Assembly: GCF_963676685.1 (NCBI RefSeq) | Contig: NC_092354.1 | Location: forward strand, 35,774,001-35,838,000 | DNA from: Mytilus edulis | Taxonomy: Eukaryota | Length of the DNA stretch: 64,000 bases | Reading direction: 5' to 3' | Shown here: in pieces, positions 20,443-61,397 of the stretch | Numbering within the stretch: position 1 is the first letter of the stretch | How the letters are laid out: every line of letters starts with the position of its first letter | Notes under the pieces: generated by a model | The model's database searches: none | Seen by the model: the letters and a program-made list of their open reading frames with translations, nothing else | Told to the model about the DNA's origin: nothing | Translations under genes and position numbers: made by a program

Positions 20443-23400
20443 TCACTGAGATAGAAAATAATTGTCTTGAAGAAATTTAGGAGGATGGCATTTCCGTGTG
20501 GATCGTCGAATTACATCGGTGTTTACTTGATCATCAGGGTCGTGTTGTAATTCATTTTCGCCTATTGGTAAGCTTAAGTCACTTGGTTCGTTTTCGAAAA
20601 GTTCCGGTTCTAACTCCTGTGAATGAGGAATGGATATTACATTCGGAATGTCAGTAGGTTTAGGCGGGCTTTGTGTTTTTACTGTATTATCGTCCTCGTC
20701 TGAAGATGTAGAATTGTCGTGACTATAAGTATCCTGTTGGCGTAAAGTGTTTAATAGTGACGGGACTTTATAACAATCACTCCTTTTTACACGGTATGAT
20801 GTATTGCGTAACTGAGAACCAACAAATTTTCTTATGTTGCACCAAGAATTGTCTGTAGAAACAACTAGGTATCGGTCACGAGCACAAGTTTTGTTTCGGT
20901 CGTTATATAAGTAAACTAGATCACCAACTTCTAAATGCGGAGTTTCGGGTAGGGCTCCAGAGGGAGCTTTAGGAATTTCGCTGTAACTGTGGTTCGACTT
21001 TCGTAACTCATGTTGACGCTGAATAAGATTCTGATCTGTCAAAGGTATTTGGTTGTTTGAGAATTGATCACGTTGAGTCCACATTTCTCTTGCGGATAAC
21101 CCACGGTTACGAATGCGAGAATTTAAACGGGCAATAGCCAGAGTGAGTGACAGGGGTGATATACATCGTGTATTCGGGTCTTGTCGCAAAATTTCGTCTT
21201 CTAACTCTTGAATTGCCTTGTCGGCTACAGGGTTTTTGTTTTTGTTTTTGAAACGACCAACTTCTATGGTAATTCTATGTCGGCGCAAAAGTTCATCGTT
21301 GACCAGGGCTTGGAATCCTGGTGCAGGGTCGGTACGAACAACGGCAAATGGTCCATCGAGTGGACATAGTTCAACACAAAGACACAATAAAGACTCACGT
21401 AAAGTTTCTTGGCGCTCGTCTGTGATCAAGCGAGCGGCTGTGTATGACGTAACATATTCACGCACAACTAGGATAAGCTGTCGTTCACGCTTCATCACAT
21501 CTGCAGCAAATGCAGACCCTATTGTCTCTGGTGGGTCACCTGTAGATTGTACATTTAACTTGTGAGGAATTTTTTGAAGAGCGGCACATTGATGACATCC
21601 ATTACTGACAGTTTCAATTGCTTTATCCATATCAAGTGCGAAGAAGTAACGGTGTACGACAGATTTAAGTTGATAGGTTGAAGGATGGTCGAGTTTAATG
21701 TGTAACGATGTAAGTAGTCCGTCTAAAACCTGACGAGGAACAACAATACATTCACGTGTTGGAGCCATCGGCTCGTTTCTCTTGACAACGAGTAAACCGT
21801 CTTTAGCAATACACGCATTGTTTAGATAGCGTTTTATGTCCTTTACATTAGTAAGTTTTTTTGACGGTCGGGTCCCTTGGCGCAAGTGAGCATGTGTACG
21901 CCGTAAGTCCGAGCATTCTGTTTGGATTGATATCCAGGCGTTCCTGCTTGTAAACGGAAGTTTTTGAATCCCTTCAAGAATGTCTTTTGTTGAGATATGT
22001 CTAACAACTGAATTTTCAGTAAATTGCACAAATGTACAGATTTGACAGGCTGAATCCTCACAGTCTGGTGCATTGCGACTTGCAAAATCGGACGGAAGTA
22101 TAGCAGCTCCTGCTACATGTCTTACTGTTACTTGATATCTACAGGCTGTTGAAAGAAATGTCGAAACACGTGGGCTTGCTGAAAATTCTCCCCTACACAG
22201 CTTCTCGAATGCCTGAACACAGGGTTTACTATCGGTCAATATGCACGTGTTATGTTTTGATTGTATGATATACGGACTAAAGTGCTTAATAGCTGAGGCA
22301 ATAGACAGTGCTTCGATTTCACAAGGCAGCCACGTTAATTGGCGTTTTCGCAGTTTTGCACTAAAAAATCCGGAAACATGTATTTTATCATCACGTGTTA
22401 TGTAAAGGGTAGCGCCTAAGCCATGTTTTTTCACAGAACCATCGGTAACTATCCATAGTTGATCATTTGGTTGAGGTAAAAATATTGAACGATTTGTTGA
22501 AAGAGCTTTCTGTGCCTGCGAGAATATATCAGTAAGTTCGTCCGACCATTTTATAGTTTCTTTAGATTCTCGACCGGCTACCATATCATCAAGTTTACCT
22601 AGTAATGAAGCGCAATCTGGTATTACTCGTGCGAGTACTTTATACGCTCCAATAAAAGACCGTAAACCACATACTTTGTCTGGTTGTGGACAAACTGATA
22701 ATGTAGAAATACGATGCGGGTTGGCTTTGATAGTTCCTAATTGCCAAATCCATCCAAGAATAGTTGTAGTTTTGGGTGCGATAATCGTTTTAGAAGCAGA
22801 CAAATTTAGACTGTTCTTTTGCAGAGCCTGTAGAACCCTTGTCCAGTTTTGTAGTAATTCGAGTTGGGTATTTCCACCGCAATAAAGATCATCAGCTATT
22901 TTAGCTACAACACCTTCTTCTACCAGATCACCTAAAACACGACACATTAGCTCCTCAAGTGCTGTTTCTGAGCCTGGCATGCCCATTGCAGAGCGCACAT
23001 ACACACGCACACCTTTAAAGGGGGTTACTACACCACAGTATTTCATTGAATCACTCGAAAGTGGAATTTGGTAGAACGATTTAGTAAGGTATGTTGCTAT
23101 TATGTATTTCCACTGTGCTATTTGACGTAAGGTTGAATCAACATCTGGCATGAGTGACGGTTGGGGTTTGCTATATCGGCCTACGTCTGCAAATGCGGTA
23201 ACTAAACGGAAACTGCCATTTGGTTTCTTAACTAAAAATGACGGGTTAACATATTCTACAGATACGCCAATATCTTCTGGGCGTTTGAAAACACCAATTG
23301 CTTCAAGTTCATCAAATTTTTGTTGAAGTTCTACTAGTTGATTACGGGAATATTGCGGCACACGGCCTTTGCGTTGCGGTGGTTGGACTGGTCCCATGTT

Positions 23401-24171
23401 CACTCTAGCTTGAAATGGACCGGCGGCACCATTGTATCCCTTGAAATATGGGTCGAAAACATCATCAAAGTCTTTGACCGTATCCCTGAATTTTACTTTT
23501 AACTCTTGAGATAACAAATTATCTGGGTCAATTTTTACTGATTCTGAATGATTTGTCAATCTTGGGTGATTTATTTTATCAATGTTCTCAGTTGATTCGA
23601 CGGCATCACTTATACACTCTGGAACATATGTTGATCGTATTTGACAAAAGTGTTCGTTGCGTCTTAAACTATGGGGTTCCTGTGTCAAATTTGGAATACG
23701 AATTCTGCCGGCAACGCTTGTAATCAAATTTGGCGGGGGCCACACGTTTGAATCCTTTCCAGCATGCATTGATGAAACATGCGACTCTAATCTTGGTTCA
23801 ATGGCGAATGTATCATCAGTTGAGCAAATATCAGATGGTAATTGCATTTCAAGAAAATCACCAGGCCAAATAGTTGTAAATTGAGCCGGAGCACGTAAAA
23901 CGTGTGCCCGACGGACTGTATGATGTTCGGACGTGTTTTGAACGGAGCCATAAGTATAAACGGTATTGTTACCCAGTATTACTTGACGTTTAGCGGGACG
24001 GATAGAAATGTCATTTTTTTCCATAAAAGGAATACCAGCCAAGATGTCTACATCCAAAGTTTCGACGACTAAACCCTCAAAATGTAGTTCACGTCCATCA
24101 CGTGTGAAATTAGTGTGCACTTCCCCAATGACTTTGAGGGGTGAAGATCCATCGGCCTGATGTGCAGATTG
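20443..24171 (-). CDS. pol: Pol: protease C-terminal part, reverse transcriptase, RNase H, integrase
   Basis: ILAG protease motif; RT MGMPGS and IADDL; RNase H TDGS, EIEAL and TDSKP; integrase H-x4-H...CHQC, FAAD and RTD. Same frame as gag, separated by a single TAA. Confidence 0.9.
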
Positions 24172-25314
24172 TTAGCTAGACTTTATTTCAATACCCATTC
24201 GTTTAGCTGCGGAAGCACGTAACATATTGCCGGTCGCACCACTATCAATAGTTAAACGCGTGTTATAATGTGTATGGAACACGTCAAGATACGGATACTG
24301 GCGGACTTGGACTCGGTTTACTGAATGCATAGGTTTAGAAACATTGTCGACTTCTACGTCTGACAATTCGTCATCTGAATTATCTAATATTCCGGCAATT
24401 TGTCGGGCTTTAACCATGTATTTTCGGTCGCTGTTCGGTAAGAAAGAGCACTTGCTGAGGAAGTGGCGGTCGGGTCTGCCTGTTGCTTTACACAACGGAC
24501 AACTTTTAATAGAGCGTGGATAAGATAATTTGAGTTTTTCTTCATGAACAAACTTGGATTTTGCAGGAAAGTTAGAAGTAGCTGCTCGCATAACTTTTGC
24601 ATCCTCAGAATTACGGAGTTCCTCAAGTAATGAGTCAAGCGCTTGCGAAACTTCCGGTTTTATTGACGACAATGTTCGCGATCTCAATTCTGTTCCATAT
24701 CTTTGTTTGACCAATTTCGGTAGGTCTGTATGTATTAGTCTTAACCATGTTAGAACGACAAAGTTTTCAAGTGACGGTGTCATTTCTTCATCTTCCTCGA
24801 TTGCGCCCCCGTGATGCGTTATTTGGGTATCGCGACGGAGCAGGTTGTCTTCCACAAAAGCCATTATTCGTTGATAAAGGTCTTCTGGACGTTCGTTCGG
24901 TTCAAAATGTATTGCTGCAAAGTCTATAAAATGAGCACCCGTTGATTGGAATCCATAATGTAAACGGATGGTTTGCCATATATTTTCAATAGAAGTAGAA
25001 TTTTTTACTATTGTGTTTCTAGATATAACTGGGCAATAATTGGCTATTTGACCAAGCATTAATTCTAACATGCTGACTTTTTGTTCACGTGTACGCCTAT
25101 TTGCTTCGGCTACATCTTCACCATCATTCAAAAAGCCACGGTTGGGACCAAACCTAGTTTTCTTTTGCCATTGTACGTTGTCTCCTAAGAATGGTGCAAA
25201 ATGTGGGTCTAATGATAACGTGTATATTATGTTTTGTCTCCAGTTTTCAAATGAGTTTACAGTTTCAATTTTAGTAAGACACCACTGTTTAGGTGCTCTG
25301 TGAGTATTAGCCAT
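24172..25314 (-). CDS. gag: Gag plus protease N-terminal part (DSG active site)
   Basis: 380 aa; CPLC...H...C knuckle and TIDSGATG. Ends at an in-frame TAA inside the protease. Confidence 0.9.
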
Positions 25315-25467
25315 TGTGTTAAATGCTTTTGCTTATTTATAATGCAGTTTAAGTTTCACGGTAAATATTTATTTACGGATGACCTAGACAGGTTTTAGTC
25401 AGTCCCGATGTTCGTCTCAACAATATGATGAATAATAAACCTTTCTTGTAGGCGTAAATTCGAATCA

Positions 25468-32037: not shown

Positions 32038-33766
32038 GTATGATATTCATTGGATAGCATGAATGCTGAAATGATCAGTTATGGATGTTTAAAGTTCATA
32101 AGTGTATGAATCATTTATGAACGGCAAGTAATAAGAACAAAGAATACAACGATTGACCAAAAGGTATGACCCTGAGTCAATGATTAAAGTCTACAGATTG
32201 CTTAAAAGCAATTGTATCCCAAAAAACTTTGGTGTATTGGATTCCCCTGCATGTAGTTAATATCAATTTGTGCTCTACAACTTCGTAAATGAGCTGGTCA
32301 CAGTTTTATATTGAAGCAGTTCGTTAAAAAGAGCAATATTTCGTATAAGATGAAGTAAAGAGTATGCCTTGTATGTATAAAGAATATTGGCTTTGATATT
32401 TTAAGAAATTAAAAACTAAGTTTTACATGTTGTTTATATCTCTTACACCAAATTTAACAGTGGATTTTTGGAAAAACAGTTTTTGATGATAAAAAACAAA
32501 TAATTCAAAATAAAGTCCTTTGCTTTTTCAAGTGATCTTATAATCATCCACATCACAGGATAAATCCATAAACATATACAAATTGAAGAGACCAATCCAC
32601 AAATTATGTTAACTAACTGATGATTGAAATTACATCCCTCTATTGAAACAATGAACGTCTGATTTGGCTTTAATAAACAATTTCTCAGACCAAAACACTG
32701 CAACTGTAGTATGCTGCTGGTCGAAATTCATCAATCGATTGAGCTAAAAAAAAAAACATCCGTGTTACACACTGAAACGCCTCAAATATAAGAGAACTAC
32801 GACACAACAGAACCACAACACTTACATTTGACACATACAGAAAAAGATATCAACTTTCTTGTTTTACCTGTACCTTGTCTTTTATTTAAAACCTCTAATG
32901 CACACGGTATGTGACACTGTCTCATAATCCTGTCAGCCATAGTAAACAATGCGTCTGATGTTCAAGTGGTAAGAAGCGCCGACTCAGAAAACACTTACAC
33001 AGATTACCTAGATTAAGAATGGATTGGGGAAAGAACCAGCCTTAGAAGGTTTTAATTTTTTTTTATAAAGACAGATTTGAGATTATATGTATTACAATCA
33101 AGAAAAGAATTCTTCCAAAAACTCCAGGTTAAAAAAACACGATGGCGTTGGAATTTATATAGGACACAATCAGCAGTGCTAACATGCCTGTACCAAGTCA
33201 GAAATATGACGGTTCTTGTCCATTCGATTTTGATGCGTTTTGTTATTTGATTTTGCCATGTGATTATGGACTTTCCGAATTGATTTTGCTGTTAGTTCAT
33301 TACTTTTGTGATTTTACTTTTGACTCGTTGGACATGGAATGTTTTACGAACGTAAAATGATTAAAGAAACCCCGGCAGTAGTGAAAGCAATGAAGACACG
33401 AACTCCGAAATTAAAAGAGAATTATATAAACTGTTTACACAGATGACCCTGTTAGTGATTACTACCTATTTAAAGTTATGGATTTTCCTCATGTTCTTGG
33501 TGTCGACACAATAAATTTATGGGGCTCCATATTGCCAACTGAGACAAGTGTTATCAGTGGATTGCATTATGATAATAAAACTTCATCACCCCTATTTTGT
33601 AAACTTGTATCGAAAAAGGGCAATTGTTCCAACAGAATCGATAGTTTATTATGTTCCGAAATTGACGCATCTAGAAATAGTCATGGCTCTCAGTTTTAAG
33701 TGTATTTTTCTCAAAATTAGTATCGCAGCTAAAATATGTTAACAAAAAACACTACATCCACAGACC

Positions 33767-41524: not shown

Positions 41525-44167
41525 TGACGTCTGCTTCAGCCATTATGAAGTATTTATAAATATCACAAAAATGAGTTTTTAGATAATGATGAAATAACTA
41601 GTATGAAGAGACACTTTTATAAAAGATACATGAAAGATAAAGAATGATTTAGTACACAACATCATCCTTTTTATCCTGAAATTTTGGCAACTTCAACTTC
41701 CAATTTTTTTAAATCTTGAAAGTCCTCCAAATCATGTATTATTTTCAAGGCAGCTAACATATACATTGAGCACATAATTTTCTTTAAAAAACATCTTTTG
41801 ACAAGAAATTTCAGTAAATATGATGCCATACTATAATAATCTAAAAAGGTGTTTGGAAAAATAATGAAAAACAGTTCAATACCTTGATAATAGGGCGACA
41901 GAGGACGGTCGACATCGAAATTTTCTGGTACTAAGTGGCAAGTTTTGGAGTATAAAGAATTATGTATAAGAAAACGATTTATAAAGCGGCACCCTCATCC
42001 AATGAGTGGAAATGCTTTAAATTAAATGAATTCTTAACGTGTTTACTTTCTTTTCTATTTCTCTCCGCCTCCTTAGTACCCAATATCCGGTCGCGATGAT
42101 ACAGAGTGATAATATAATGTATCTAATCATATGATTGTTAGAAATATTGTTTTTGCATTGTGTGTGATAATAACAAATATGTATTGTTTCTCACAGATTG
42201 TGCCCTCTCGAAAACATATTTTACTCTTAAGTATTATTTTTTTTTGTAGGTCATGAATAAATATTTTGCTTATATTTTACTTTTATAGATTGGAATGTGG
42301 AAGAGAAGATTTTGCATATATATGATACACTTCACAAAACCAGAGAAACTGAGACAAAATGTATTGTGTATGTAGAAATAAAGATTGATGATATTCTGAG
42401 ATACTCTGAAGGAGGTCGTGAATGCTTGAACAGTTAACCACAAAATAAGTGTTATCTTTGCTAACTATATGGTGTTCATGGTCTTGAACAATATATAAAC
42501 ATAACTTCGAAAGGGTAGCAGATTGCTCCACATGTGACACCCGTCGTGCTGCGCAGTTATGTTAAAACACACCCAGTAATAAGTCTTAATTGGTAAGTAA
42601 TTCTGGGGGATTCATAATTTATCAATCGAAAATGAAAAAAATCTTCTACCTTCAGGTATCATTACTTGATTTCCTTATATTTTCAAAGCACATTTAATGA
42701 AAAAAATAGTGGGTTGAACCTTGTTTAATGGCTAACCAAACCTCAAGCTTTGTGACGATGTTAAACAATATCGCTGAAATGAGAACACTGCGTGACAGAA
42801 ATGAGGAACAGACACACTCATCACAGAGAATTGCACAAACAAATAATATAAAGTCGACACAACATACGAAGTGTAGCTAAACCCTTAAGCAGATAATAAA
42901 ATAAAAGCCGCCAAACATCCAAAAGAATGGAAAACAAGTCATATTCCTGATTGGTACAGGCAAATGTTTGGTGTCAATAAGGGCAAGCAGAATGTACTAA
43001 GTGAATATTTGAAGATTCGAAATACATATTGAGTTAAATTTCTTAATGACATATATTTTAACCAAATATATGTATTTAACGATCAAAATATGATTGCACT
43101 ATAACCTGCCATCCATTATGCTTTAATACGTTCAACTAGGTTGGTTGATCTGGGGAATATCGTTTTATAAGAAATCTCTTATGGAACTTCATGATTTTAT
43201 ATCGACTCGAAAATGAATCTTTAGCAGATGCATCAAAATATGTTTTTTTGTTATGATTATGGCGATCCTATTATAGTACGTAACCTGGGACATTCAGGGT
43301 GATTTTTATACGACCGCAAATTTTGAAAAAATTTTCGTCGTATATTGCTATAACGTTGGCGTCTGCGTCGTCGTCGTCGTCGTCGTCCGGCGTCCGAATA
43401 CTTTTAGTTTTCGCACTCTAACTTTAGTAAAAGTGAATAGAAATCTATGAAATTTTAACACAAGGTTTATGACCATAAAAGGAAGGTTGGTATTGATTTT
43501 GGGAGTTTTGGTCCCAACATTTTAGGAATAAGGGGCCAAAAAGGGCCCAAATAAGCATTTTCTTGGTTTTCGCACCATAACTTTAGTTTAAGTTAATAGA
43601 AATCTATGAAATTTTGACACAAGGTTTATGACCACAAAAGAAAGATTGGGATTGATTTTGGGAGTTTTGGTTTCAATAGTTTAGGAATAAGGGGCCAATA
43701 AAGGGCCCAAATAAGCATTTTTCTTGGTTTTTGCACAATAACCTTAGGTTAAGTAAATGGAAATCTATGAAATTTAAACACAATGTTTATGACCACAAAA
43801 GGAAGGTTGGTATTTATTTTGGGAGTTTAGGACCCAACAGATTAGGAATTAGGGGCCAAAAAGGGACCCAAATAAGCATTTTTCTTGGTTTTCGCACTAT
43901 AATGTTAGTATAAGTAAATACAAATCTATGAAATTTAAACACAAGGCTTATGACCATAAAAGGAAGGTTGGTATTGATTTTAGGAGTTTTGGTCCCAACA
44001 GTTTAGGAAAAAAGGGGCCCAAAATTGAATAATTGGGGTTCTTTGATATGCCGAATCTAACTGTATATGTAGATTCTCAACTTTTGGTCCCGTTTTCAAA
44101 TTGGTCTACATTAAGGTCCAAAGGGTCCAAAATTATTGGCCCCTTATTCCTAACTATTTTGATATGA

Positions 44168-44211
44168 GCGTCACTGATGAGTCTTATGTAGACGAAACGC
44201 GCGTCTGGCGT
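44168..44211 (+). ncRNA. Type I hammerhead ribozyme
   Basis: Stem I GCGUCA/UGGCGU, CUGAUGA, stem II GUCU-UAUGU-AGAC, GAAA, minimal stem III within palindrome ACGCGCGU; predicted cleavage after GUC at 44205. Confidence 0.92.
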
Positions 44212-44523
44212 ATAAAATTATAATCCTGGTACTTTTGATAACTATTTACACCACTGGGTCGATGCCACTGCTGGTGGACGTTTCGTCCCCGAGGGTATCA
44301 CCAGCCCAGTAGTCAGCACTTCGGTGTTGACATGAATATCAATTATATGGTCATTTTTATAAATTTTCTGTTTAAAAAACTTTGAATTTTTCGAAAAACT
44401 AAGGATTTTCTTACCCCAGGAGTAGATTACCTTAGCCGTATTTGGCACAACTTTTTGGAATTTTAGGTCCTGAATGCTCTTCAACTTTGTATTTATTTGG
44501 CTTTTTTAACTATTTTGATATGA

Positions 44524-44567
44524 GCGTCACTGATGAGTCTTATGTAGACGAAACGCGCGTCTGGCGT
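44524..44567 (+). ncRNA. Type I hammerhead ribozyme (identical second copy)
   Basis: Same sequence; predicted cleavage after 44561. Confidence 0.92.
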
Positions 44568-46877
44568 ATAAAATTATAATCCTGGTACTTTTGATAACTA
44601 TTAGTTTGATTTTGACAAAAAATGAATCGGTTGGGTTCTTTGATATGTTGAATCTAAAAATGTACTTAGATTCTTGATTATTGAAGTTTTTTTGGTCCAG
44701 TTTTCAAATTGGTCTACATTAAGGTCCAAAGGGTCCAAAATTAAACTTTGTTTGATTTCATCAAAAATTGAATCCTTGGGGTTCTTTGATATGCCAAATC
44801 TAACTGTGTATGTAGATTCTTCATTTTTGGTCCTGTTTTCAAATTTCAAATTCTACATTAAAGTCCAAAGGGTCCAAAATTAAACTAAGTTTGATTTTAA
44901 CAAAAATTGAATTCTTGGGCCTCTTTGATATGCTGAATCTAAACATGTACGTAGATTTTTGATTATGGGCCCAGTTTTCAAGTTGGTCCAAATCAGGATC
45001 TAAAATTATTATATTAAGTATTGTGCAATAGCAAGTCTTTTCAATTGCACAGTATTGTGCAATGGCAAGAAATATCTAATTGCACAATATTGTGAAATAG
45101 CAAATTTTTTTTTTAATTAGAGTTATCTTTCTTTGTCCAGAATAGTAAGCAAGAAATATCATATTTGTGCAATAGCAAGAATTTTTTTTAATTGGAGTTA
45201 TCTTTCTTTGTCCAGAATCAACTTAAATCTTTGTTATATACAATATACAATGTATATACACTTTTTACTACCAACTGATAAATTTAAATAATCTTTACCA
45301 TTCAGTGATAACAAGCAGTTTTTTTACATCTTAATATTTTATGATGTATTTAAATGAGTAGTTATTGTTGCAAACTCTATTAGAAATTTGAATTGATATC
45401 AGTTTTGAAAAAGGGAAACGGGGATGTGAAAAAAAAGGGGGGGGGGTAAATTTTTCTCATTTCAGATTTCATAAATAAAAAGAAAATTTCTTCAAACATT
45501 TTTTTGAGAGGATTAATATTCAACAGCATAGTGATTTGCTCAAAGGCAAAAAAAACCTTTTAAGTTCATTAGACCACATTCATTCTGTGTCAGAAACCTA
45601 TGCTGTGTCAACTATTTAATTTTAGATTTAAAAAGTTTGAAGAAGAAATCTTTAATTGATTTGTAAAATCTTGGCATTTGTTTTGTGTAAAAAAAAACCA
45701 TGTAATGTCAAAAATTTGATCACAATCCAAATTCAGAGCTGTATCATGCTTGAATGTTTTGTCCATACTTGCCCCAACTGTTCAGGGTTCGACCTCTGCG
45801 GTCGTATAAAGCTACGCCCGGTTTATCAGTGTACAAAAGGAGTCTGAAAAGACTTGAATGTTTTATTCTATAATCAAATCCTATTTTCTTATTTTATTTT
45901 AAAATTCATATCATATATAAAATATAAATATATATTGCAAAAAAAAAACCCAACATGTCTCATGTCTTTACGTTATAACCTATTGCCGACGCGAAACTGA
46001 CCCCGCCTAACATTTTACAGAAAATATAGAAAATGGCCGTTTGAAATAAAGGCAACAGTAGTATACCGCTGTTCAAACTAATAAATCCTTGGACAAAAAA
46101 ACAAATCGAGGTAACAATCTAAAACTGAGGGAAACACATTAAATATAAGAGGAGAACAACGACACAACACTACAATGTAACACACACAGAAACGGACCAA
46201 GCATCAGACACTCAAAAACATGGTGGGTTGAACCTGGTTTTGTGGCATGCCCAACCTCCCTCTTTTATAGCCATGTGAAATATAACATTAAAATGACAAC
46301 TCAACACCACAGGACTACAATATAAATAAATTGGAGAACACAATTTACAAAGAAACACACGAACAACAGCCAACAAAAGGCAACAAGTTCAAAATTTTAA
46401 TACGCCAGAAGTGCATTTTGTCCACACGAGATCTACTAGTGTAAAAGTTTTAATTTGCTCCGCTATCATATCACTTTGTATAAATCTTACCAGGCAAACC
46501 GATTGCTCCAGAGGATCCCTAACATGTATGAGGGTATCACGATCAGTTTTAAGATGTGGAAAAGGGGTGCAGTGTGTTGAGATTACACCCCCCCCCCCCC
46601 CCCCCCCAAACCAGTCACGTGACCTGCTCTTCCCCATTCACTAGGCTAAGAGTAGAGCAGGAGCACGGGATTACAACGTCAGGATGTCAGATCAGGTGTA
46701 AGACTTATTATAAATCTTTCTTTATTCAAATATGAATGGTATCTTAATTTTTATCAATTGTTACCCCCCTTCCAGCTACTGTTTCATATAGTCATACTGT
46801 ACCCCTACCTGTTGGAAAGAAAATTTATTTTTCCAAGATTTTATTCGAAATCACAAGATTTATTCAAACGATGATAA

Positions 46878-47808: not shown

Positions 47809-50800
47809 TTATATTTTATAATAAATTCCAATTTCTTTTAAAAAAGCAACAATATTTGTAAATGAAACATTATTAAATAAATCATACATATTATTGACAT
47901 TGAAATGCTTCTTACGAATATCAGCAAAGTCAATACAATTAATTAAAACATGTTTAATAGTATACTTGCAGTTGCAAGGAACACATTGTGGTTCATCTTC
48001 ATTTTTTAAAAGATACTCGTGTGTTATTTTAGTATGACCAATACGACATCTAGTAATAACACACTGATCTTTTCTGCACATAATATTATCAAAAGGTTTG
48101 CCTAAATTAGGTTTAATTTCATGCAATTTATTATCGTCTTTTTTACTCCATTTATTTTTCAATATATTAAAAACATATTCTCTAATATTAGATTTAAAAT
48201 CAGTATATGGTATATCACAGTTAGATAGAGGGTCACCCAGGGCATTCTTTGCCTCAAGGTCTACAGCTGTGTTTCCAAGGATTCCAACATGACTCGGAAC
48301 CCATAGAAATATTATTTCTTTCAGAAGAATTTTTAAATTCCTCATTACATATAAAATTTTCAGGATTGTTGGGTTTTTAATTTTAGTATTTCGTATAGCT
48401 TGTAAGCATGAAAGTGAATCCGAACATATAATAAATTTGGATTTATCTGAAGAAGCAATAAATTTCAAAGCCAAAATTATTGCTTCTGCTTCAGCAGTAA
48501 AGATGGATGCATCAGATGGCAAACGGAGGGTTGCAGCTCTGTCCCTGAAGACAGCAGCAGATGCAACTCTATCACCATCTTTTGATCCATCAGTATAGAC
48601 AGTTGAAAAATCGAGATAATCGGCTTTAATTTCAGCATAGTGTTGCTGAATTAAAAGAGGATTTGTTTTATTTTTATTGTGTTCACGGAGATCAAATATC
48701 ATTTTTGGTTTGGGAAGTTCCCATGGAGGACATTTGCAAGTTTGAACTTGAGCAACAGATTTTAAATCAAAAGAAGCTAAATGTGGTTTTAAACGTAAAC
48801 CTAACGGAGGAATTTTATGTTCATGTTTTGCAAAAATATCTTCATAAATCGGATTAAAAACACAGCTGTAGGCAGGATTATCTGAATGGGCTTTTAGTTT
48901 GACAGCATATTGAAGTCCAAGCTTCAAACGTCTGTCAGTGAGTGAGTGCTCATCAGCCTCTACATACAGACTCTCAACTGGTGAGGTTTTAAATGCGCCA
49001 AGACAGAGACGCAAACCTTGGTGATGCACAGCATCGAGAATCTGTATGTAGGACTTCCTTGCAGAGCCATACACTATAGAGCCATAATCTAGTTTAGATC
49101 TAACAAGAGATCTATATAAATTGAGTAAAATGTTGCGATCAGCACCCCAGTCAGTGCTGCCGACAACTTTTAAAATATCTAAAGCTTTTAAACATCTCGC
49201 TTTTAACATTTTGATATGGGGTAGAAAGGTTAACTTTTTATCGAAAATTAACCCAAGAAATTTGGTTTCATCAACCATTTTAATTGGGTTGCCGTACAAA
49301 GTTAGTTCTGGATCAAGATGCAATTTTCTTTTGTTACAAAAATGCATCCCGACCGTTTTTGAAGTGGAAAATTTAAAACCATTTTCCGAGGCCCATTTTT
49401 CAATTCTTCCAAGACATAATTGTAATTGTCTTTCAATGTTATTCATATTTTTGCCTCTGTAACATATTAAAAAATCATCAACGTACAATGAACCTTCAAT
49501 ATTACTTTTTAAAACTTCAACAAGGCTGTTGATTTTAAGACTAAATAATGTAACAGATAAAATACTGCCCTGAGGGACACCCATCTCTTGATCATAAAGA
49601 TCAGACATGGTCGAATTAACTCTAACATTAAATTGTCTGTTAGAGAGAAAATTAGAAATAAAATTAGGCATATTGCCTTTCAACCCCATATCAAATAGAT
49701 CTTTTAAAATACCATATTTCCATGCAGTATCATAGGCCTTCTCAAGGTCGAAAAAGACCGACACCACATGCTCATTTTTCGCAAAACCATTACGGACAAA
49801 TGATTCGAATCGAACAAGATGATCAAGAGTACTGCGACCCTGTCGGAATCCACACTGAATATTGGCTAATAGCCCATTGGATTCCAGGAACCAAACAAGG
49901 CGATCATTGACCATCCGTTCGAGTGTTTTACAGACACAACTGGTAAGAGCAATTGGTCGATAATTAATAGGATCCGTATGATCTTTACTTGGTTTTGGAA
50001 TAGGCACGACGGTTGCAAGCTTCCAGATTGATGGTAAATCACCAGATTCCCAGATGTTATTCATGAGCTGCAAGAGAGCTTCTAGCGAGGAATCTGGCAA
50101 GTGTTTTAAGAGTTGGTAGTGAATATTATCAGGCCCACAAGCTGTATCATGGGCTTTTGACAGAGATGTTTTAAGTTCTTCAAGAGAAAATAGTTTATTA
50201 TAATTTTCACCATTTTTTGATTTAAAGTTTAATTTAATTTTTTCCTTTTGTTTTTTAACTTTTTTAAAGTCTTCCCTGTAGTTGTTACAAGAAGAAGACT
50301 TTGCAAAAGTTTCACCAAGTTTGTTGGCAATATCCTTTTCAGATGTTAATAAATTATTGCCGTCTTTCAAATGTTTTACAGTGGCTTTAGAATTTTTACC
50401 TTTTATTTTATTTACCATATTCCAAACTTTTGTCATCGGAGTGCGAGATGTAATCCCCGAGACAAATTTTTTCCAGGATGTTCGTCGGGCTTGCCTACAA
50501 GTCCGCCGTGCCTTAGCGCGAAAAATACGGAAATTACTCAAGTTTTCCGTCGTTGGTTGTTGATTGAACCGTCTTTCAGATTTTTTACGGTCACCTATGG
50601 CTTGATCACATGCGTCATCAAACCATGGTTTACTGGGATGTTTTGGATTTGCCGAGGTCTTAGGAATAGTTCTGTCAGCAATTGACGTTAGAACTGTATT
50701 AAAAGTTAAAATTGGATCTTGCACAGTCTCAAACATCTTTGACTGAAGTTCCGTTCGACAGAGATTCTCAAACAAGGACCAGTCCGCCTTGTCAAGTTTC

Positions 50801-51480
50801 CAACGTGGTACTCTCTGTTGGGCAGAATTAAAAAAATGTTCAAGTACTATTGGAAAGTGATCACTTCCACATAGATCATCATGAACACGCCATGAATAAT
50901 CCAGGAGCAGAGAGGGATCGCATATAGTGATATCAATAGAAGAATAAGACCCGTTTCCAGGATGAAGATACGTATTAGATCCATCATTAAAAATGCATAA
51001 TCCTTCTTGAGAGACAAAGTCCTCAATGATCTTACCTTTGGCATTATGAGTCTTGCTACCCCATAATTGATTGTGGGCATTGAAGTCGCCCATAAGTATA
51101 AATGGTGAGGGTAATTGATCAGTGAGGTTTTTGAGTTTTGCTTTATCGATAATTGAATTAGGTGGAATATATATCGAACATAATGTAATTGTTTTGTCTA
51201 ATGATAAACGAATTGCAACTGCTTGCAGATCCGTTGTGAGTTGGACTGTGCTATGAATGACGTTGTCCTTCACAAAAATGGATGATCCGCCTGCAGCACG
51301 TTCATCTACCTTAGAAAATGTGCTATACATGTTGTATCCTTTTAAAGATACGTTGTCACTTTCTTTTAGATGAGTTTCTTGAAGACAAAATGCAATAAGT
51401 AAAAAAGACTGAACTAGAAGTGTTAACTCGAGAAGATTTATTTTAAGACCTCGGCAATTCCATTGGATTATATTTGTCAT
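47809..51480 (-). CDS. LINE ORF2: AP endonuclease, reverse transcriptase, RNase H and CCHC finger (1223 aa, intact)
   Basis: QWNCRG, LQET, GDFNAH, SDHFP; YRPIAL, DLEKAYD, GVPQG, YVDD; YTDGS, AEAEAI, SDSLS, GNTAVD; CVPC...H....C. Confidence 0.97.
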   Translation of the reverse strand: MTNIIQWNCRGLKINLLELTLLVQSFLLIAFCLQETHLKESDNVSLKGYNMYSTFSKVDERAAGGSSIFVKDNVIHSTVQLTTDLQAVAIRLSLDKTITLCSIYIPPNSIIDKAKLKNLTDQLPSPFILMGDFNAHNQLWGSKTHNAKGKIIEDFVSQEGLCIFNDGSNTYLHPGNGSYSSIDITICDPSLLLDYSWRVHDDLCGSDHFPIVLEHFFNSAQQRVPRWKLDKADWSLFENLCRTELQSKMFETVQDPILTFNTVLTSIADRTIPKTSANPKHPSKPWFDDACDQAIGDRKKSERRFNQQPTTENLSNFRIFRAKARRTCRQARRTSWKKFVSGITSRTPMTKVWNMVNKIKGKNSKATVKHLKDGNNLLTSEKDIANKLGETFAKSSSCNNYREDFKKVKKQKEKIKLNFKSKNGENYNKLFSLEELKTSLSKAHDTACGPDNIHYQLLKHLPDSSLEALLQLMNNIWESGDLPSIWKLATVVPIPKPSKDHTDPINYRPIALTSCVCKTLERMVNDRLVWFLESNGLLANIQCGFRQGRSTLDHLVRFESFVRNGFAKNEHVVSVFFDLEKAYDTAWKYGILKDLFDMGLKGNMPNFISNFLSNRQFNVRVNSTMSDLYDQEMGVPQGSILSVTLFSLKINSLVEVLKSNIEGSLYVDDFLICYRGKNMNNIERQLQLCLGRIEKWASENGFKFSTSKTVGMHFCNKRKLHLDPELTLYGNPIKMVDETKFLGLIFDKKLTFLPHIKMLKARCLKALDILKVVGSTDWGADRNILLNLYRSLVRSKLDYGSIVYGSARKSYIQILDAVHHQGLRLCLGAFKTSPVESLYVEADEHSLTDRRLKLGLQYAVKLKAHSDNPAYSCVFNPIYEDIFAKHEHKIPPLGLRLKPHLASFDLKSVAQVQTCKCPPWELPKPKMIFDLREHNKNKTNPLLIQQHYAEIKADYLDFSTVYTDGSKDGDRVASAAVFRDRAATLRLPSDASIFTAEAEAIILALKFIASSDKSKFIICSDSLSCLQAIRNTKIKNPTILKILYVMRNLKILLKEIIFLWVPSHVGILGNTAVDLEAKNALGDPLSNCDIPYTDFKSNIREYVFNILKNKWSKKDDNKLHEIKPNLGKPFDNIMCRKDQCVITRCRIGHTKITHEYLLKNEDEPQCVPCNCKYTIKHVLINCIDFADIRKKHFNVNNMYDLFNNVSFTNIVAFLKEIGIYYKI

Positions 51481-53001
51481 TATTTAATAAAAGAAGGGCG
51501 AATGCTGTCGAGTTTGCCAGCATTCTTATTTCGCTCACCCTGAGATCGTGATCTTTCGGGTGGCGGAACACTTTCGGTTTCCATTTCAGTTTCGATGATA
51601 AGTGTTGAAAATCTGTTGTGCGAGGAGAGTCGTCGATCTCCAGGACTACGCGCAGCTGGTGTTACTCCGCCTCGACCCCTACCCCGCGACCTCGAATCAG
51701 AAGACTTCTGAGAGGATGAATTTCCTGGCTTCTTTTGGACATCCTTCTTTTCTTGAGAACGAAGAGGAGATGGGGCTCTGGTAGACTGTTTACTGGACGA
51801 AGAAGATACCTTCTTGGATGCAGATGAAGGAAGACTTTTGGAGGTGGAAGAATCATCTATATCACTGGGAAGATCCCAGACAGATTCACCGCTCCAATTG
51901 TGTATTTCTACTGTTTCTTTTTTATTTGATTTTTTTTTCTCATTTTTTTTTTGGTGATGATAGTGAGCTCTGTAGGGAAGATTGAGTTGACTGAGTACTG
52001 GTTTTGGAAGATATTGGTTTTCTTGGAATTAATATTCTATCGGTAGGTTCTGTTTCAACAGGCAGCATTTTAAAATTGTCCGCATCAATTGGCCAAGTCA
52101 TGCGAGTTTGTGTATTCTCGTGACTGAATGAGCGGACAACTTTGCTGGCGTACGATGGTCTGTTTGAAACAAGGAGATCATTCGAAACAGAAGCTATCTG
52201 TTTAGCTTCTGGGTAACTAATGTTTCTTTCTGTTTTAATTTTAATAATATTTTTTTCTTTAAGGTAAACAGGGCAGTCCCTAGACGATGAAAAATGGGAT
52301 TCACCACAGTTTACACATTTAGAAGATTCAGAGTGACAGTTTGTTCCCTCGTGTCCTTCGTCAGAACACTTGAAGCATCTCTGCTTACCACGACATTGTT
52401 TGCTTCCATGACCAACCTTTTGACAAGTAAAGCATCGAATTGGGTTAGGGATAAACATGTCAACTCTGATTCCGAAGCAACCTAAAGTAATAGATGGAGG
52501 AGGAGTTGGAGTTCTAAAGGTCAAAAGATAAGTATTTAATTTGATTATATTTCCATTCTTTTTAATTTGAAATCTAATAACATTAGTTACACCTTGGCTT
52601 GAAAGTTCCTCACCGATTTCTTCCACGGTAAGGTCACCAAGGTATTGACTTCTGTCTCGAATGATCCCCTTACAGCTGTTCAAACTGTTATGAGGAGAGG
52701 CAGAAACAGGAAAGTTTGATATTGTAGACATTGTAAGTAAATTTGTTGATTGACTTTTGTTGGAACATTCAACCAACAAATTGCCAGATCTCATTTTTAA
52801 AACTTTTTTAACAGTACCAGCAACGCTTTGAATTTGTTTGTGAATTACAAAGGGCGATATTTTTGAAATTGGTTTTTCTTCTGTTCCTTTTATTACAATA
52901 AATCTGGGCCAACTGTCATCTTCCCGACAGGGCTCTGAATCATCACATTTTCTTTTCTTATGTATTAAAGCTGATATCGAGGGTTTGTTTTGTTGTGCCA
53001 T
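51480..53001 (-). CDS. LINE ORF1: gag-like protein with three CCHC knuckles; one extra A in an A10 run (51943-51952)
   Basis: Likely start ATG at 53001 (MAQQN). Knuckles CFTCQKVGHGSKQC, CFKCSDEGHEGTNC and CVNCGESH. Removing one A extends the frame through NRFSTL to TAA at 51482-51480. Confidence 0.88.
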
Positions 53002-53749
53002 ATGAAAGGAGAAAGATTCACCATTCTTGCCATCCACCCACCTCGGAGTGCCTACAAGGGCGATGCTGTGTTTCCGTGGCGAACCGGGATCGAGTGCTAA
53101 TGCTGAAAACGAGCTCCATATATAATGTAGCTGGTCCTCAAAATCAGCACCCAAGATCCACTGCGGAAAGCACCAGATGTTCCAAGAATAGTATACTCAA
53201 GCAGAGCGTATCCATCAAGCGAAAAAGAAAGCGTACCACTTGATTGACCCATGAGCCATCGCCTTCTTCAGTTATCCAAAATATAAATAGCTTAATTTAA
53301 AATACATGTGTATATTATGAAAATTGTTACAAGAAAGCTTATTGTTGAGGATTAACTGAAGGGCTCGACATGACCAGCCGATTGATCGAACCGGGTCCAT
53401 CCGACCTCCCGTTTAGATGATTTCGAAGCCAAAGCAGCTTATTGAACTATAGTCTCGTCCGTCCGGGTATTTTCTGACCGTAAGGAGTCTGGCTATAGCC
53501 CTCATCCACAAGGATCTCGTCAACCACCGACACGGGTAGCAACCCACGGCAAACGGGTTGGAGAGCCTATTTTATTTAAAACATCGGGCATCTCACGATG
53601 TTCGGATCACTTTAGTCTGGTCTCTACCCTTCGACCTGTCCAGCATGGGTAACCCTACCAGGAGACGAAGCTCCAGCTGGCATAGCTCTTGGGGTCACTG
53701 AGACACGCAAGCCCTCCGACCACGGCAAGGATAGCGATCCACCGGAGGG
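53002..53749 (-). promoter_or_regulatory. About 750-nt GC-rich, structured LINE 5' UTR
   Basis: Lies between the TSD and the ORF1 ATG and contains multiple complementary segments (see findings). Confidence 0.7.
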
Positions 53750-54504
53750 AACCAAATAATTAAAGAAGTAATATGTATCAATGAACTTAATTACATATGT
53801 TTTGAAACGGTACCGCGGATTATATTATAAACATCCGGTTGTTCTAGTGTATCATTAGTACATGAAAAAATGTATTTAATTCTTGCATTTTTTAAATTTC
53901 TTTTTGAAACAGTGATTGAGGGTAATTCAAGAGAAGAAACAGGTTAAGTGGTATCCTTCTGTGGTTAAAGAAGAGCCCACAGACCACCTTCCCACCACTG
54001 CAAATTGTGAGGAGTCAATTCTTGGTATGTTATTAATATAAAAAGAATTAAAAAAAAAACATCAACAGACAATATAAAAAAAGATGTGGTATGATTGCCA
54101 ATCAGAAAATTTTCTACAAGAGACCAAAATGAAACGGAAATTAAGAACTGTAGATCAGCATATACCCTTCAACAATGAGCAAAACCCATACCGCATAGTG
54201 ATCTATAACAGGTCTGGAAATAACAATATAAAACAATTCAAACGAGAAAACTAAATTCAGGTCGAAATTTCAAATGTACTCAAAGATTCGGACTCCTTTA
54301 CCTTTTTTTTCGACAGAAATGCATAATTTTTTTAATTTATTTTAAAAAAGAAACACAAGCTTGTTTTTTTAATCTATTTGTAAATTCCGTTTTATATAAA
54401 TCGTAAATGTCCTGAAAATTGGCGCATTTTCAAAATCTACATTCAGAATAAATTTACCGCGTATCTATATATGAAGATAAACATATTTTACTAAATCTTT
54501 CGAG

Positions 54505-55135
54505 CCTCTTGACTGTTCCACGGACAATGCCGTATACGGAATCGAATGTACTTTGTGTGGACTACTTTATGTTGTTGAAACTCGTCAAACTTAGCATAAA
54601 AGAATGAATCAACACCGGTCTGATAATAAAGATCCTCAATTTAGGGTTCTTTATAACCATTTTAATCAACTGGACCATGATCTTTCTTTATCTATGAAAG
54701 TACGCATCATTGAGAAAATTTATTTTCAAAATCAGTCTGTTCCTATTGTATCCTACAATTACACCAAAACCATTACACCTAAAATATTTAACTACAAACA
54801 AGCATTGCAGGACCTTAACTTAGAACAATACCTAAAAACCCTCAGACATGTGACTGTTCCCATTCGCCTTATAATTACAGCCCCTCTGGTCATGTTATAA
54901 CTGGGAATCTTAACATAATTCAACATGATAGGTGATTTATCATGGTCCTAAGTTTAGAGAACCCCAACACATCAATTGGAACCATAACTTCAAAAATAAT
55001 TATGGATTGCATTCTGGACTACGCCAGAGCAAGGGCTAAGCGAGAAGAAGTTGAACTGGGCACTTTGTCAGAATGGGTTAAAACTATCAAGTCTCTGATA
55101 AAACGTCGCATTCAACAGTTGAAAAACTGTGTAAA
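54505..55135 (+). pseudogene. Penelope-like element fragment with GIY-YIG endonuclease upstream of the pre-RT region (Naiad/Chlamys-type order)
   Basis: CSTDNAVYGIECTLCGLLYVVET...RMNQHR...HF...H, then KIFNYK, HVITGNL, GPKFREP and LSEWVK. Confidence 0.7.
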
Positions 55136-57374
55136 TAAACTCAGCATAGATGATACCAGGACTAAATTTTGTATAAACGCCACACGCGCGTTTCGTCTAC
55201 AAAAATCTTCGAAAATCATAAGAAAGTAAAATATAAGTGAACAAGTTACCAATAAATACAATTGGTAGGTCCTGTCATAATAAAGGCCATTCGGGATGAT
55301 GGTCTAGGAAATTTGGACTGCCACTGGAATTTGAGTGTATGTATATTGGTTAGGGACAGAAATTTTGCCTTTCAAAAGGCCACATATGAACCCCTCTAAG
55401 AGTAGTTAATTTATTGGATATATAATATTGATTATGTTATCAGTACCTTAAAAGCAAATTAAATATTTCTAGTATGCTATATACATATACACATTCATGG
55501 ATCTACAATACAATTTGTTTATATATATTGTTATGTCATATCAAATTTTAAAGAAGTTTGGTATGACATTATTGTTGTTTACAGGTTATCTCTATATATT
55601 ATAAAATATCCAAGATAACAACCAAAAACGACAAAATTCCCTTTAAATTACCAATTTTGGGGCAGCAACCCAACAACGAATTTTCCGATTCATCTGAAAA
55701 TTTCCGGGCAGATAGATCTTGACCTGATAAACAATTTAACCCCAGATATGCTCTAAATGCTTTGGTTTCAGAAATATAAACAAAAATCTACATTTTACCC
55801 CTATGTTCTATTTTTAGCCATGATGACCATTTTGGATGGTTGACCGTGTCACTGGACACTTTTTTTAAACTGCATACCCCAATGATGAGTGTGGTCAAGT
55901 TTGGTTTAATTTGACCCAGTAGTACCAGAGCAGATTTTTGCAAATTTTAACAACGACGACGGACGCAAAGTGATTAGAAAAGCTCACGAAGGGCCAGGTG
56001 AGTCAAGAACAATTACATATAAGTTGATGTTTGAAATGATAAATCTGTCCAAAAATACTTCTTTTCATTATTAAAAATGTCGTATAACCCGAGTCAAAAA
56101 TACACATACTAAAACACATTTTAAGCTTACATTTAGTAGCCTTTTAACCATTTATATACTGTATATATTGGATTCCTGTTTTTAATTATAAAGTTATCTA
56201 TTAAACTAAACCAAACACAGAAGATAAAGACAGAGAAAATGTTTTCCATTCATCTTGAAATTTTGCAATTATATAAAAGTTAGTTTATTTTTCGAGACTT
56301 CTAACTTCACGTCAGTGTGTATGGTCAATCCAACGTACACTCAATTATATTGCAGAGTGATACCGTTTGAAGAACCAGTCGAGTGATTAATAAATGGGAT
56401 TCATTCTTAAGGTTATTAATACATTTAACATTAAGCCGAACCTTTTCCTGTGTTTTCAGACTTATACAGAAAATAGTTGGTAAATGTATTTTGTACGTAT
56501 ATTTTAAAATGTTCTGGACATCTATGCAGTAAAGCTATGATACTTGCATGTTATCTTTTTCTTTACCTTAACTACATTTTTTATCTTTAATATCAAATAT
56601 AAAGTAGGTTAATGACACATCAACGAAGTGAGCTCTCAGAGAGACATTAACCAACATACATTCATCTCCAAAAAAATTTATAAATGCCTTACCGGAAAGA
56701 GCTTTAACAAAAGAAAACAAAAGATTGATAACATGCAATTAGTCTTTACATTTTTCCAACACACAACTGTCAAAAGGGGATTACCATTAGTGTAAATTCA
56801 ACAATGGGTGAGTGACGTACATTGCAAGTTTACTTTTGTCATTTACTGTTTAAAGTTCTTATTATGAAGTTGAAACCAAATCAGTTTGCTTCCAATGTCG
56901 TTGATACAAAGGTTCAACTATCAACATTTTAGTCCCTCCAAAACAATTTATTCAATTAAAATTCATATAAGGGAAGACAACGTATTTTTCGTATTTTCAG
57001 AGACATACCATAAGATAACCGCATCGCCATATCAGATAGAAAACATTACAAGTTAACAATAAGGTCCTGGACATTGGGACTGTCACTTGAAAATGAGTTC
57101 ATTAGATTGTTGCTGGCGTTCTAACCGTGCAGATTGCGTGGAGCTTCCTGTAAAGGATGCATTGGATTTTACGTCCCACACCACCGAAAAGACGCCCGAC
57201 TTTTTGGCTAGCATGTTGCTGCCATTCGGCCTTACTTCTAATGACCAGTCACACTTTTGGGGATTTATGAAAGAGGAAATCAACTCACAAGTGGTGGTAC
57301 ATAATTCACTACTTAATGCAATAAACAGGCTGTCCATGTGAGAAAACTAAGGAATACTAGCAGTGGTCAGACAA

Positions 57375-59564: not shown

Positions 59565-61100
59565 AATAAGGCCCAGACAAAACAAAACATAAACAAATTC
59601 CAACAAAACACTGACAGCCTAATTTATCAACACGACTACAAAAGAACAAATATAATATTCGCATACTGACTTCAGATGCACATACAGAATAAGGTAGGGT
59701 TTTGTCTAGGCGTGGTTAAATATGTTAAAAGAAAATGAGGGGGGGGGGGGGCTAAATCCTCCTTCATTATCATATCAATTAATTAAATAAGTTATGACTT
59801 TTGCAAGGTTAATTTTATTCTTATCTATGATATCTTGATAGGCTGATTTTTTTGTTTGTTACTAGATAATAACATTATAAATTGATCACCAGAAATGATT
59901 AGCAGGTGCTCACAACAAATAAACAACAATTTTTACGAAGCAACCCTGTGACAGTGCCGCAGCTATCGGGAATGCAAGTGGTAAAAGTGGTAGCATACGT
60001 ACTAATTCATTTCATCCGCTCCTCTATCAATATTTAAAAATGAAAGTCAATTATGCCTTTTTTAATTTCCCCCATCTGAACACGTGTAGCATGTTTGCCA
60101 AAGCTAAACTCGTTTTTTTCTAACTCTCCACCTTTTTTCATCTACTAAAATGGATGAATTACAAAGTAAACAACTTACATTCATTAATGCTTACATATTT
60201 TGTAGCTGTCACTTACTTTTGTCGGTATATTTCCACACATTAGAGAAAATAATTGCTCCGGCAAGGTGCTTCCATTCTGCAAACTTCCAAGCATCTAATG
60301 ACGGCGATTTGGGGTCGATCGGCTTCTCATTGGTTGCTACTCGGAAGTAGGCGGGGTGTAATCCCGGCAATAAAAACATCTATTGCAACCATTTATTATA
60401 TATTTTCAACAAAAAAATGCCGTAATCTTGTTTTAATAATCAAATGACATCATACCAGTATCCCTTTTTTATCCGCATGCCTGCATGCAGTTTGTATTTT
60501 ACAATTTTATCGATGGACGCTGCTTACGGAATCCGCCATTGATGAATATATAATGAGGTAATTGCGGAGTTACCTTCCCCTGACAAAAATTCCGCGAAAT
60601 TCGGCGAAATTGCCTTAACATCACTGCGCAATTATCAAAAAGATTTCTAAAATGAATCATGCTAACAGAACTATATGGTAAGGGATTGATTTTGGGGGTT
60701 CTATGGTTCAATGCAAATTCTAAGTTTGTGATAATCTCAAGTTTAACATGAACCACTAATGAATGCTAGGTCATTGGTATTATACTTTAACTTGATTTAA
60801 CGATTCAAATAATGACTTCAATACCCTGCGTCAATTTGCAACAGACGAGACATATCTCTGTGTTAACAGTTTATTTTATATTTTTCTTCCAATTTTGATG
60901 TGTTTTTTTAATCTCAGTTCTATAAAACTATCCTTTTTAATGAAACCTCTGGACAGCTTACGTACTTGTATAGCAATTCAAAGTTCAAAGATATCTCGGA
61001 TGACAAACTATACAAGCTTATCAACAATCGAGCAAAGAGATGTCCAACGTATCCTTAAAAGTTCAATCAAATTCATCATAGATACCAGATTTTAATATTT

Positions 61101-61144
61101 ACGTAAGACGCGCGTTTCGTCTTTACAAGACTCATCAGTGACGC
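61101..61144 (-). ncRNA. Type I hammerhead ribozyme within a retrozyme remnant (about 61075-61365)
   Basis: Minus strand GCGTCA-CTGATGA-GTCTT/GTA/AAGAC-GAAA-CGCGCG-TC-TTACGT; one mismatch in stem I. Confidence 0.75.
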
Positions 61145-61397
61145 TCGATCAAATATGTTTTAAAAGGCCAAATAGAGTACGAAGTTGAAGAGCATTGAGG
61201 AACAAAAATTCCTAAATGTTTTGCCAAATACAGCTACGGTAATTTATTTCCTGAGGTAGAAAAGCCTATTCAAAGTTGAACACAGTTCATTCATAATTAT
61301 GAATATATCAATGATTTTAAGTAAACACATAAGTGCTGACTACTGGGATGGTGCTATCCTGGGCAAAATAAATCAACCAGATGGCATGCTCACGTAA

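Follow-up and report, generated by a model that had tools for sequence, protein, structure and literature searches.

What machinery writes a small, ribozyme-bearing RNA that encodes no protein into a genome? The question is raised by a 64,000-nt stretch of Mytilus edulis DNA (contig NC_092354.1, positions 35,774,001 to 35,838,000; hereafter the window, with positions counted from its first letter), in which a retrozyme that lacks long terminal repeats (a non-LTR retrozyme), a repeat carrying hammerhead ribozymes, lies inside a Helentron-type element. A review of 2020 describes metazoan retrozymes, in the text available, as having no conserved motif that points to a helper (PMC7761336). The evidence set out below makes it probable that the insertion is a young retrozyme copy, and that the reverse transcriptase (RT) of a Naiad, one of the Penelope-like elements (PLEs), copied its predicted 356-nt circularised RNA into an old Helentron-type element. 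It is the anatomy of the retrozyme family, and not the copy in the window itself, that matters for this answer.

The insertion contains a perfect 96-nt direct repeat (44151-44246 and 44507-44602, spacing 356), and each repeat holds a hammerhead (Table 1). An earlier, sequence-only reading of the window had placed two identical type I hammerheads at this spacing; its coordinates are right and all stems pair. Stem I of the first ribozyme joins 44168-44173 to 44206-44211 through six pairs, three of them G-U, the core is formed by CUGAUGA at 44174 and GAAA at 44194, and stem II has 4 bp and a 5-nt loop. Stem III consists of 2 bp (A44197-U44204 and C44198-G44203) closed by a GCGC loop and sits, as the same reading had recognised, inside an 8-nt palindrome, ACGCGCGU, that is present in the retrozyme hammerhead. 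The cleavage triplet is GUC, with its last base at 44205 and the equivalent base of the second copy at 44561 (+356). The unit between the cut sites has 37.6% GC and no long open reading frame (ORF), the longest stop-free stretch being 87 codons. A scan of the window with Rfam at gathering scores gave no hits; it is by motif and pairing that the ribozyme is identified. In the genome searched (1.37 Gb, with 14 large contigs), the 32-nt ribozyme core has 8,118 exact occurrences and its reversed control has none; the hammerhead is therefore not a chance match.

Table 1. Features of the retrozyme copy, its host element and the neighbouring Naiad fragments (window coordinates).
Feature	Position	Strand	Remarks
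Host HINE (non-autonomous Helentron)	43303..45824	+	subterminal inverted repeats 43305-43318 and 45797-45810; (GTC)n; 161-bp, 139-bp and 35-bp arrays; 3' palindrome partly deleted
5'-junction filler, 15 nt	44136..44150	+	host 43681-43701 copied in inverted orientation; 3-nt microhomology at both flanks
Retrozyme insertion	44151..44602	+	1.27 units (452 nt), running from unit position 302 (5') to position 41 past the cut site (3')
Type I hammerhead 1	44168..44211	+	predicted cut after 44205
Predicted 356-nt monomer/circle	44206..44561	+	arithmetic on the two cut sites; release and circle expected from PMC7229834 (available text)
Naiad-type hairpin, 21 pairs	44250..44312	+	55/63 nt identical to the hairpin before the Naiad family C ORF; likely, putative binding site of the helper RT
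Second hairpin, 8 bp, UUCG loop	44312..44331	+	pairs changed but kept in the divergent relative L243
Type I hammerhead 2	44524..44567	+	identical to hammerhead 1; predicted cut after 44561
Family-wide fixed 3' end	44598..44602	+	likely reverse transcription start; in-unit equivalent 44242-44246, just before the hairpin
Naiad family B 3' fragments, neighbouring	46044..46441	-	include a decayed retrozyme remnant in the 3' untranslated region

The sequence-only reading had also labelled these hammerheads minimal and expected them to cleave as dimers. In the literature cited for it, the term denotes motifs without helix III, and the dimer-dependent hammerheads of the PLE type have a helix III that is absent or reduced to one pair; here there are two pairs and a tetraloop. 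Type I motifs of invertebrates in which helix III has 2 bp are reported to cut singly, the mussel repeat at about 0.1 per min, and dimers are reported to be required in amphibians (PMC7229834 and PMC7761336, available text). As motifs of this class are published as monomer cutters, the dimer requirement is probably wrong here. By comparison with that class, the retrozyme hammerhead probably needs no dimer for cleavage, and the palindrome would permit one without demanding it.

In its make-up, the element is a metazoan non-LTR retrozyme, with one type I hammerhead per unit, a non-coding tandem unit of low GC within the 150-450-nt range, and a high dispersed copy number. Target duplications, which exceed 4 bp when present in such elements, are enriched across the insertions of the family and missing at the window copy. 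The non-LTR retrozymes of Mytilus galloprovincialis are likewise non-coding type I hammerhead repeats of low GC, 350-390 nt in size, with thousands of copies, tandem arrays, neither a primer binding site nor a polypurine tract, and expression as a family (PMC7229834, as far as its available text goes). With 8,118 exact cores, the present count is above the figure of roughly 5,000 given there for a draft assembly, and the likeness to the Mg353-type mussel retrozyme is one of description, namely of size range and anatomy. By its sequence, the window element fits a further copy of this known mussel kind, at a locus that is in itself ordinary.

Near-identical units stand in arrays of 1.1-8.8 units on many contigs. 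An array on another contig has 8 units, every one of which is one base away from the window unit, and the differing base is private to the window copy (unit position 267, window 44472); this single private difference makes the copy very young. With both ribozymes complete, the claim of a complete young retrozyme with a predicted 356-nt release stands. Older, truncated relatives are found elsewhere in the window, at 997-1262 and 13160-13297 on the plus strand and at 55154-55204 and 61075-61363 on the minus strand. The relative at 13252 has another core variant, which recurs at loci L098, L106, L108 and L246.

In one stranded raw-read RNA run of related label, depth over 44206-44561 is about 750-1,050 in one orientation versus 110-290 in the other, a strand bias that under the usual protocol corresponds to ribozyme-sense RNA. 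Most of the RNA reads are 90-99% alike and hence derive from the family, which is also present in three contig RNA runs. For mussel, the available text of PMC7229834 reports that a cloned repeat self-cleaves slowly, that RtcB performs the ligation, and that abundant circles are the main form in tissue. Cleavage and a 356-nt circle are a prediction for the window locus, drawn from its two ribozymes.

How the copies enter the genome is recorded in their ends. Two samples were compared. The first comprises 37 insertions, obtained from 37 best-match loci after one duplicate was dropped, a triple was counted once and the window copy was added; the second comprises the first 40 exact-core loci listed on contig C1, which were not selected by length and include one pair duplicate. 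In the first sample, the last matching unit position falls at 37-44 in 36 of the 37 insertions, with 5' ends scattered over unit positions 2-348 and lengths of 1.1-8.8 units. In the second sample, 37 of 40 end at position 34-48, the other three ending at 23, 158 and 343, and 27 of 40 are shorter than one unit. Not one of the 77 other loci (37 + 40) ends at the cut site; copies of that kind would have been caught, since the second sample required an exact core. Target duplications of at least 5 nt are found at 9 of 36 insertions, where permutation of the ends leads one to expect 3.1. Together, these features are those of target-primed reverse transcription that begins at a fixed internal site and whose template runs unbroken through the cut site, either as a circle or as a multimer left uncleaved. 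The same 77 loci exclude as the template a linear monomer that was cut and then primed at its own 3' end.

Granted the same element and the same Naiad helper, the template might be the uncleaved read-through transcript of a tandem array, with circles as a mere by-product. Such a transcript predicts the identical fixed 3' end and the identical read-through of the cut site, which weakens the ends as an argument for circles. It also agrees with the slowness of the mussel ribozyme, and with unprocessed RNA being the main substrate of the enzyme of Poseidon, another PLE (PMC11167929, available text). The units themselves differ by 2.35 changes within arrays versus 9.3 between arrays, one array consists of 8 identical units, and variants are singleton in 84 cases versus intermediate in 6; a few variants are common to neighbouring units of one array, which speaks for an uncleaved transcript. 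Against it stand the arrays of up to 8 identical units, the lack of an ordered set of unit variants common to arrays (7 scattered recurrences only) and the predominance of circles in mussel tissue, none of which is decisive. We regard the uncleaved transcript as unlikely, while leaving it a real share of the probability.

The candidate helper emerged from a search for GIY-YIG endonucleases, in which 150 of 858 candidates were scored. This search led to locus L101, an intact element with an N-terminal endonuclease and a C-terminal RT, whose group is very large (49,674 candidates). Three families, termed A, B and C, have ORFs with an N-terminal GIY-YIG (YVG) and the CxC, DKA and YIDD motifs in Naiad order. 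Since N-terminal GIY-YIG, CxC and DKA are diagnostic of Naiads (PMC8557442, available text), the motifs assign all three families to this group. Family C is apparently active, as judged by open frames of at least 975 aa in 41 of 50 among the matches listed. No hammerhead core was found inside the units of families B and C, and in 18 other GIY-YIG loci neither the retrozyme ribozyme nor its 3' tip was found at the element's own end.

The feature that connects the retrozyme to these families is a hairpin, which the sequence-only reading had passed over together with the fixed 3' end. Family C and the window retrozyme are alike in 55 of its 63 nt (87%) and have nothing else in common. A covariance model built from 18 retrozyme copies alone recovers the hairpin in family C at 76-77 bits (7 of 7 loci), in family B at 55-62 bits (4 of 6 loci) and in family A at 18-20 bits (E 0.02-0.1), where the stem bears a 27-nt insert and 7 of 15 stretches are hit (L101 and 6 of 14 others). 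At E up to 10, the model has no hit in the 18 other GIY-YIG loci, nor in the ORFs of the long interspersed nuclear element (LINE) and the Gypsy-like element of the window; a blastn search of 50 GIY-YIG loci did not pick up the hairpin of family A. The folding z-score is -3.1 for the retrozyme (44253-44310) and -3.8 for the stretch behind the fixed end of L101. Local alignment of the retrozyme with this L101 stretch scores 43, whereas the best of 5,000 shuffles reaches 29, 17 other loci score 20-27, and the LINE and Gypsy regions score 25 and 23; the whole-against-whole score is contaminated by a captured retrozyme tip and was not used.

The pairing is conserved along with the sequence. When 10 rows are aligned by sequence only, 96.7% of cells pair, as compared to 36-54% for slid structures. 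Six of the 21 pairs are changed on both sides, a number reached by 28 of 500 shuffles, and the covariation score is reached by none of 500, in a control that ignores relatedness. The position of the hairpin is likewise similar: terminal copies of Naiad C stop 4-7 nt before the stem (7 of 7 loci), retrozymes mostly 6-9 nt before it, readable family-B copies at a similar distance, and family-A copies at a T-run that precedes the stem. Retrozyme and Naiads thus have in common a fixed 3' end with variable 5' truncation and a signal at the same place relative to that end, which are marks expected of a non-autonomous element that depends on a Naiad. Naiads are, on these sequence comparisons, the likely helper of the retrozyme family. 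In a divergent retrozyme family with another hammerhead sequence (L243:5309-5660), the Naiad hairpin (77 bits) is kept, and so, with changed pairs, is the UUCG hairpin.

A 3' tail shared with an autonomous element, in the style of short interspersed nuclear elements (SINEs) and LINEs, was looked for and not found: the 27-29-nt retrozyme tip in family A proved to be an insertion in the 3' untranslated region (UTR), about 440 nt before the true end, and occurs in 5 of 30 loci checked. A young subfamily of family A has spread this tip in its 3' UTR, with 39 exact junction matches (L101:90-118 on the minus strand and 38 other places). Exchange of another kind is seen in family B, in which the 3' UTR contains a decayed 270-nt retrozyme piece that ends at the fixed end in 6 of 6 loci (L234-L238 and L244; window 46221-46441, minus strand). 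This piece explains many of the degenerate hammerhead-like fragments in the genome. Derivation of the retrozyme body from the family-B UTR is disfavoured, as the match stops exactly at the fixed end and the ribozyme core is decayed; for the same reasons, capture of a retrozyme piece by Naiad B is the more likely, if not a proven, direction. Further fragments of Naiads A and B lie in the window at 54479-55135 (plus), 33222-33325 (plus) and 2606-2745 (minus).

Much of this anatomy has parallels in studied elements. Naiads, like the retrozyme, combine a fixed 3' end with heavy 5' truncation, partial tandems and AT-rich landing sites (PMC8557442), and in both the hairpin lies just behind the end; the available text of that study mentions a hairpin or stem-loop nowhere. 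The two differ in that the retrozyme is non-coding and has hammerheads, whereas Naiads have none, and only the 63-nt hairpin is common to the retrozyme and family C. Poseidon of Anolis, the only full PLE to have been studied biochemically, likewise has a fixed internal start of reverse transcription, requires RNA 3' of that start and uses an AT-rich target, with a preference for ATT (PMC11167929, available text). This geometry, with its internal start and its need for 3' RNA, is the geometry proposed for the retrozyme. Poseidon differs in belonging to another PLE clade, in starting inside an ORF and in using a linear template, and a non-autonomous partner was not tested in the text available.

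From these elements, a course of events can be proposed. Read-through transcription of the window copy would supply the RNA, its ribozymes would cut singly, and an RtcB-type ligase would close the circle, as in the published mussel work (PMC7229834, available text). A Naiad protein would then bind the hairpin, nick AT-rich DNA and prime a few bases 5' of the hairpin. The RT would pass the joined cut site and run round the circle until it dropped off, and host repair would seal the 5' junction, in the window copy with a short inverted filler. More broadly, the balance of the evidence leans towards mussel ribozyme circles being parasites of hammerhead-free Naiads, whose RT-positioning hairpin they have hijacked for rolling-circle, target-primed reverse transcription inside the circle.

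Several observations weigh against this proposal. The RNA reads have no end pile-up at the cut sites and cover the family, with none assignable to the window locus. Taken whole, the 356-nt circular fold has no unusual stability (z -1.4), and the active ribozyme does not appear in the minimum-energy fold. The hairpin is weak in family A, as its E values indicate, and the model has no hit in 8 of the 14 stretches of family A or in 2 of the 6 loci of family B. A hairpin in common is evidence of ancestry or of a factor that both elements share, but not of use at the present day. The lack of a target duplication at the window copy recurs in at least 11 of 36 copies, and inverted 5' copies, a frequent feature of Naiads, were not seen for the retrozyme among the young loci. 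Finally, the precedent for priming in vitro comes from a PLE clade other than Naiad, and the rival helpers compared were limited to GIY-YIG-bearing elements, one LINE and one Gypsy.

An alternative is a different helper, with the RT of a hammerhead-bearing PLE or of a LINE copying the family and the Naiad hairpin surviving as an ancestral relic. Hammerhead-bearing PLEs were indeed favoured in PMC7229834 and PMC7761336 (available text), Xenopus retrozymes match the pseudo-LTRs (pLTRs) of annotated PLEs (bioRxiv 10.64898/2026.07.22.740005, available text), and the present search for an autonomous element covered 150 of the 858 GIY-YIG candidates. A relic, however, would hardly be 87% identical to the hairpin of an apparently active family with its pairing kept, nor would the distance from end to stem be nearly equal in retrozymes and Naiads. 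The hairpin is also found in 0 of the 18 other loci, at whose own ends neither the ribozyme nor the 3' tip of the retrozyme was seen. Copying by another RT is improbable on this evidence, and a Naiad is retained as the likely helper.

The other RT-bearing elements have features of their own. At loci L096 and L114, a hammerhead-like motif whose stem III is very short lies beside one PLE family with a C-terminal GIY-YIG; it is probably the pLTR ribozyme of that family and is unlike the ribozyme of the retrozyme. Two PLE families with a C-terminal GIY-YIG (L103, L107 and L117) have, upstream of the RT frame, a second one of about 420 aa. The LINE of the window (47809-53196, minus strand) has an upstream frame of 418 aa and a frame of 1,224 aa with apurinic/apyrimidinic (AP) endonuclease, RT and RNase H-like domains. 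The Gypsy-like element (20443-25332, minus strand) has frames of 386 aa and 1,242 aa, with RT, RNase H and an integrase zinc finger.

The place of landing can be described in equal detail. That the host is of Helentron type, as first read from the sequence, is borne out by its anatomy, which includes the subterminal inverted repeats (subTIRs), inverted repeat (IR), microsatellite and central repeats of a HINE; the retrozyme entered between the 161-bp and 139-bp arrays. An intact 3' palindrome is lacking owing to a private deletion, seen in this 1 copy versus at least 2,134 intact ends. The bivalve HINEs Cg_HINE, Pearl and MgE have the same layout of 5' subTIR, IR, microsatellite, central 160-bp arrays and 3' subTIR (PMC7492417, available text); unlike theirs, the 3' palindrome of the host copy is damaged, and the likeness to MgE is by description of the layout. 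A second copy of the host HINE lies in the window at 2938-3534 and 8233-8870, split by about 4.7 kb, with its 3' palindrome intact.

Other copies of the host preserve the empty site: in 509 reads, 44135 and 44601 are joined through three intervening letters. It follows that about 3 nt of target were lost, that there was no target duplication and that 44136-44150 is filler. Comparable inverted fillers are seen at loci L034 (15 nt) and L059 (37 nt). The L059 retrozyme has inserted into a fragment of a family-C Naiad, at the 3' end of that fragment; there the target is duplicated and the inverted filler match measures 37 nt. Among the matches listed, no DNA contig spans an insertion junction.

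The junction also bears on whether the 96-nt repeat might be a local accident of DNA duplication or repair, which would leave the copy a silent relic. A templated inverted filler at the 5' junction is typical of end-joining repair, and no RNA read is assigned to the locus. Yet the 3' end is the fixed end of the family, and young arrays on other contigs differ from the unit by 1-3 changes, so the repeat arrived with the insertion. Such a local origin is very improbable, and silence of the window copy is possible. Spread of the retrozyme inside a Helentron by rolling-circle transposition, as the earlier reading had suggested, could draw on the insertion between two HINE modules, on the many intact HINE 3' ends and on the internal sequence that Helentrons are known to carry (PMC7492417, available text), but it is contradicted for this assembly and merits next to no credence: a search for other Helentron copies with the same insertion found none, each junction occurs once in the genome at up to one mismatch, the host HINE flanks none of the other retrozyme loci (0 of 37 and 0 of 40), and the palindrome deletion is private. 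The Helentron is a landing site only.

A general tie between retrozymes and PLEs is already in print (PMC7229834; bioRxiv 10.64898/2026.07.22.740005; both in the text available). In the former, PLEs are named only as candidates, and insertion ends, priming site and helper are not described in the available text. The latter likewise reports, for vertebrate retrozymes, sequence in common with PLE termini and co-occurrence with PLEs, the link to the termini being given for frogs only and with no mechanism. As far as its available text goes, that preprint has a vertebrate focus and no mollusc, finds Naiads only in a coral and unlinked to retrozymes, describes no fixed end or structured signal, and ascribes arrays to local amplification. 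In a literature search that left subscription journals and supplements largely outside, no prior report was found of a Naiad hairpin in a retrozyme, of a fixed start or of a Naiad helper.

Taken together, a candidate helper (Naiad family C), an RNA signal and a start site can now be named for the entry of retrozymes. With all three nameable, the question of how a circle enters the genome becomes a direct in vitro test. The hairpin would be the first candidate RNA recognition element for Naiads, which are dominant in bivalve genomes, and would show that a hammerhead in common is not what links a retrozyme to its helper. If this is true, the missing helper has been named, together with a portable signal, 63 nt long, by which any circular RNA can be entered into DNA by a telomerase-like RT.

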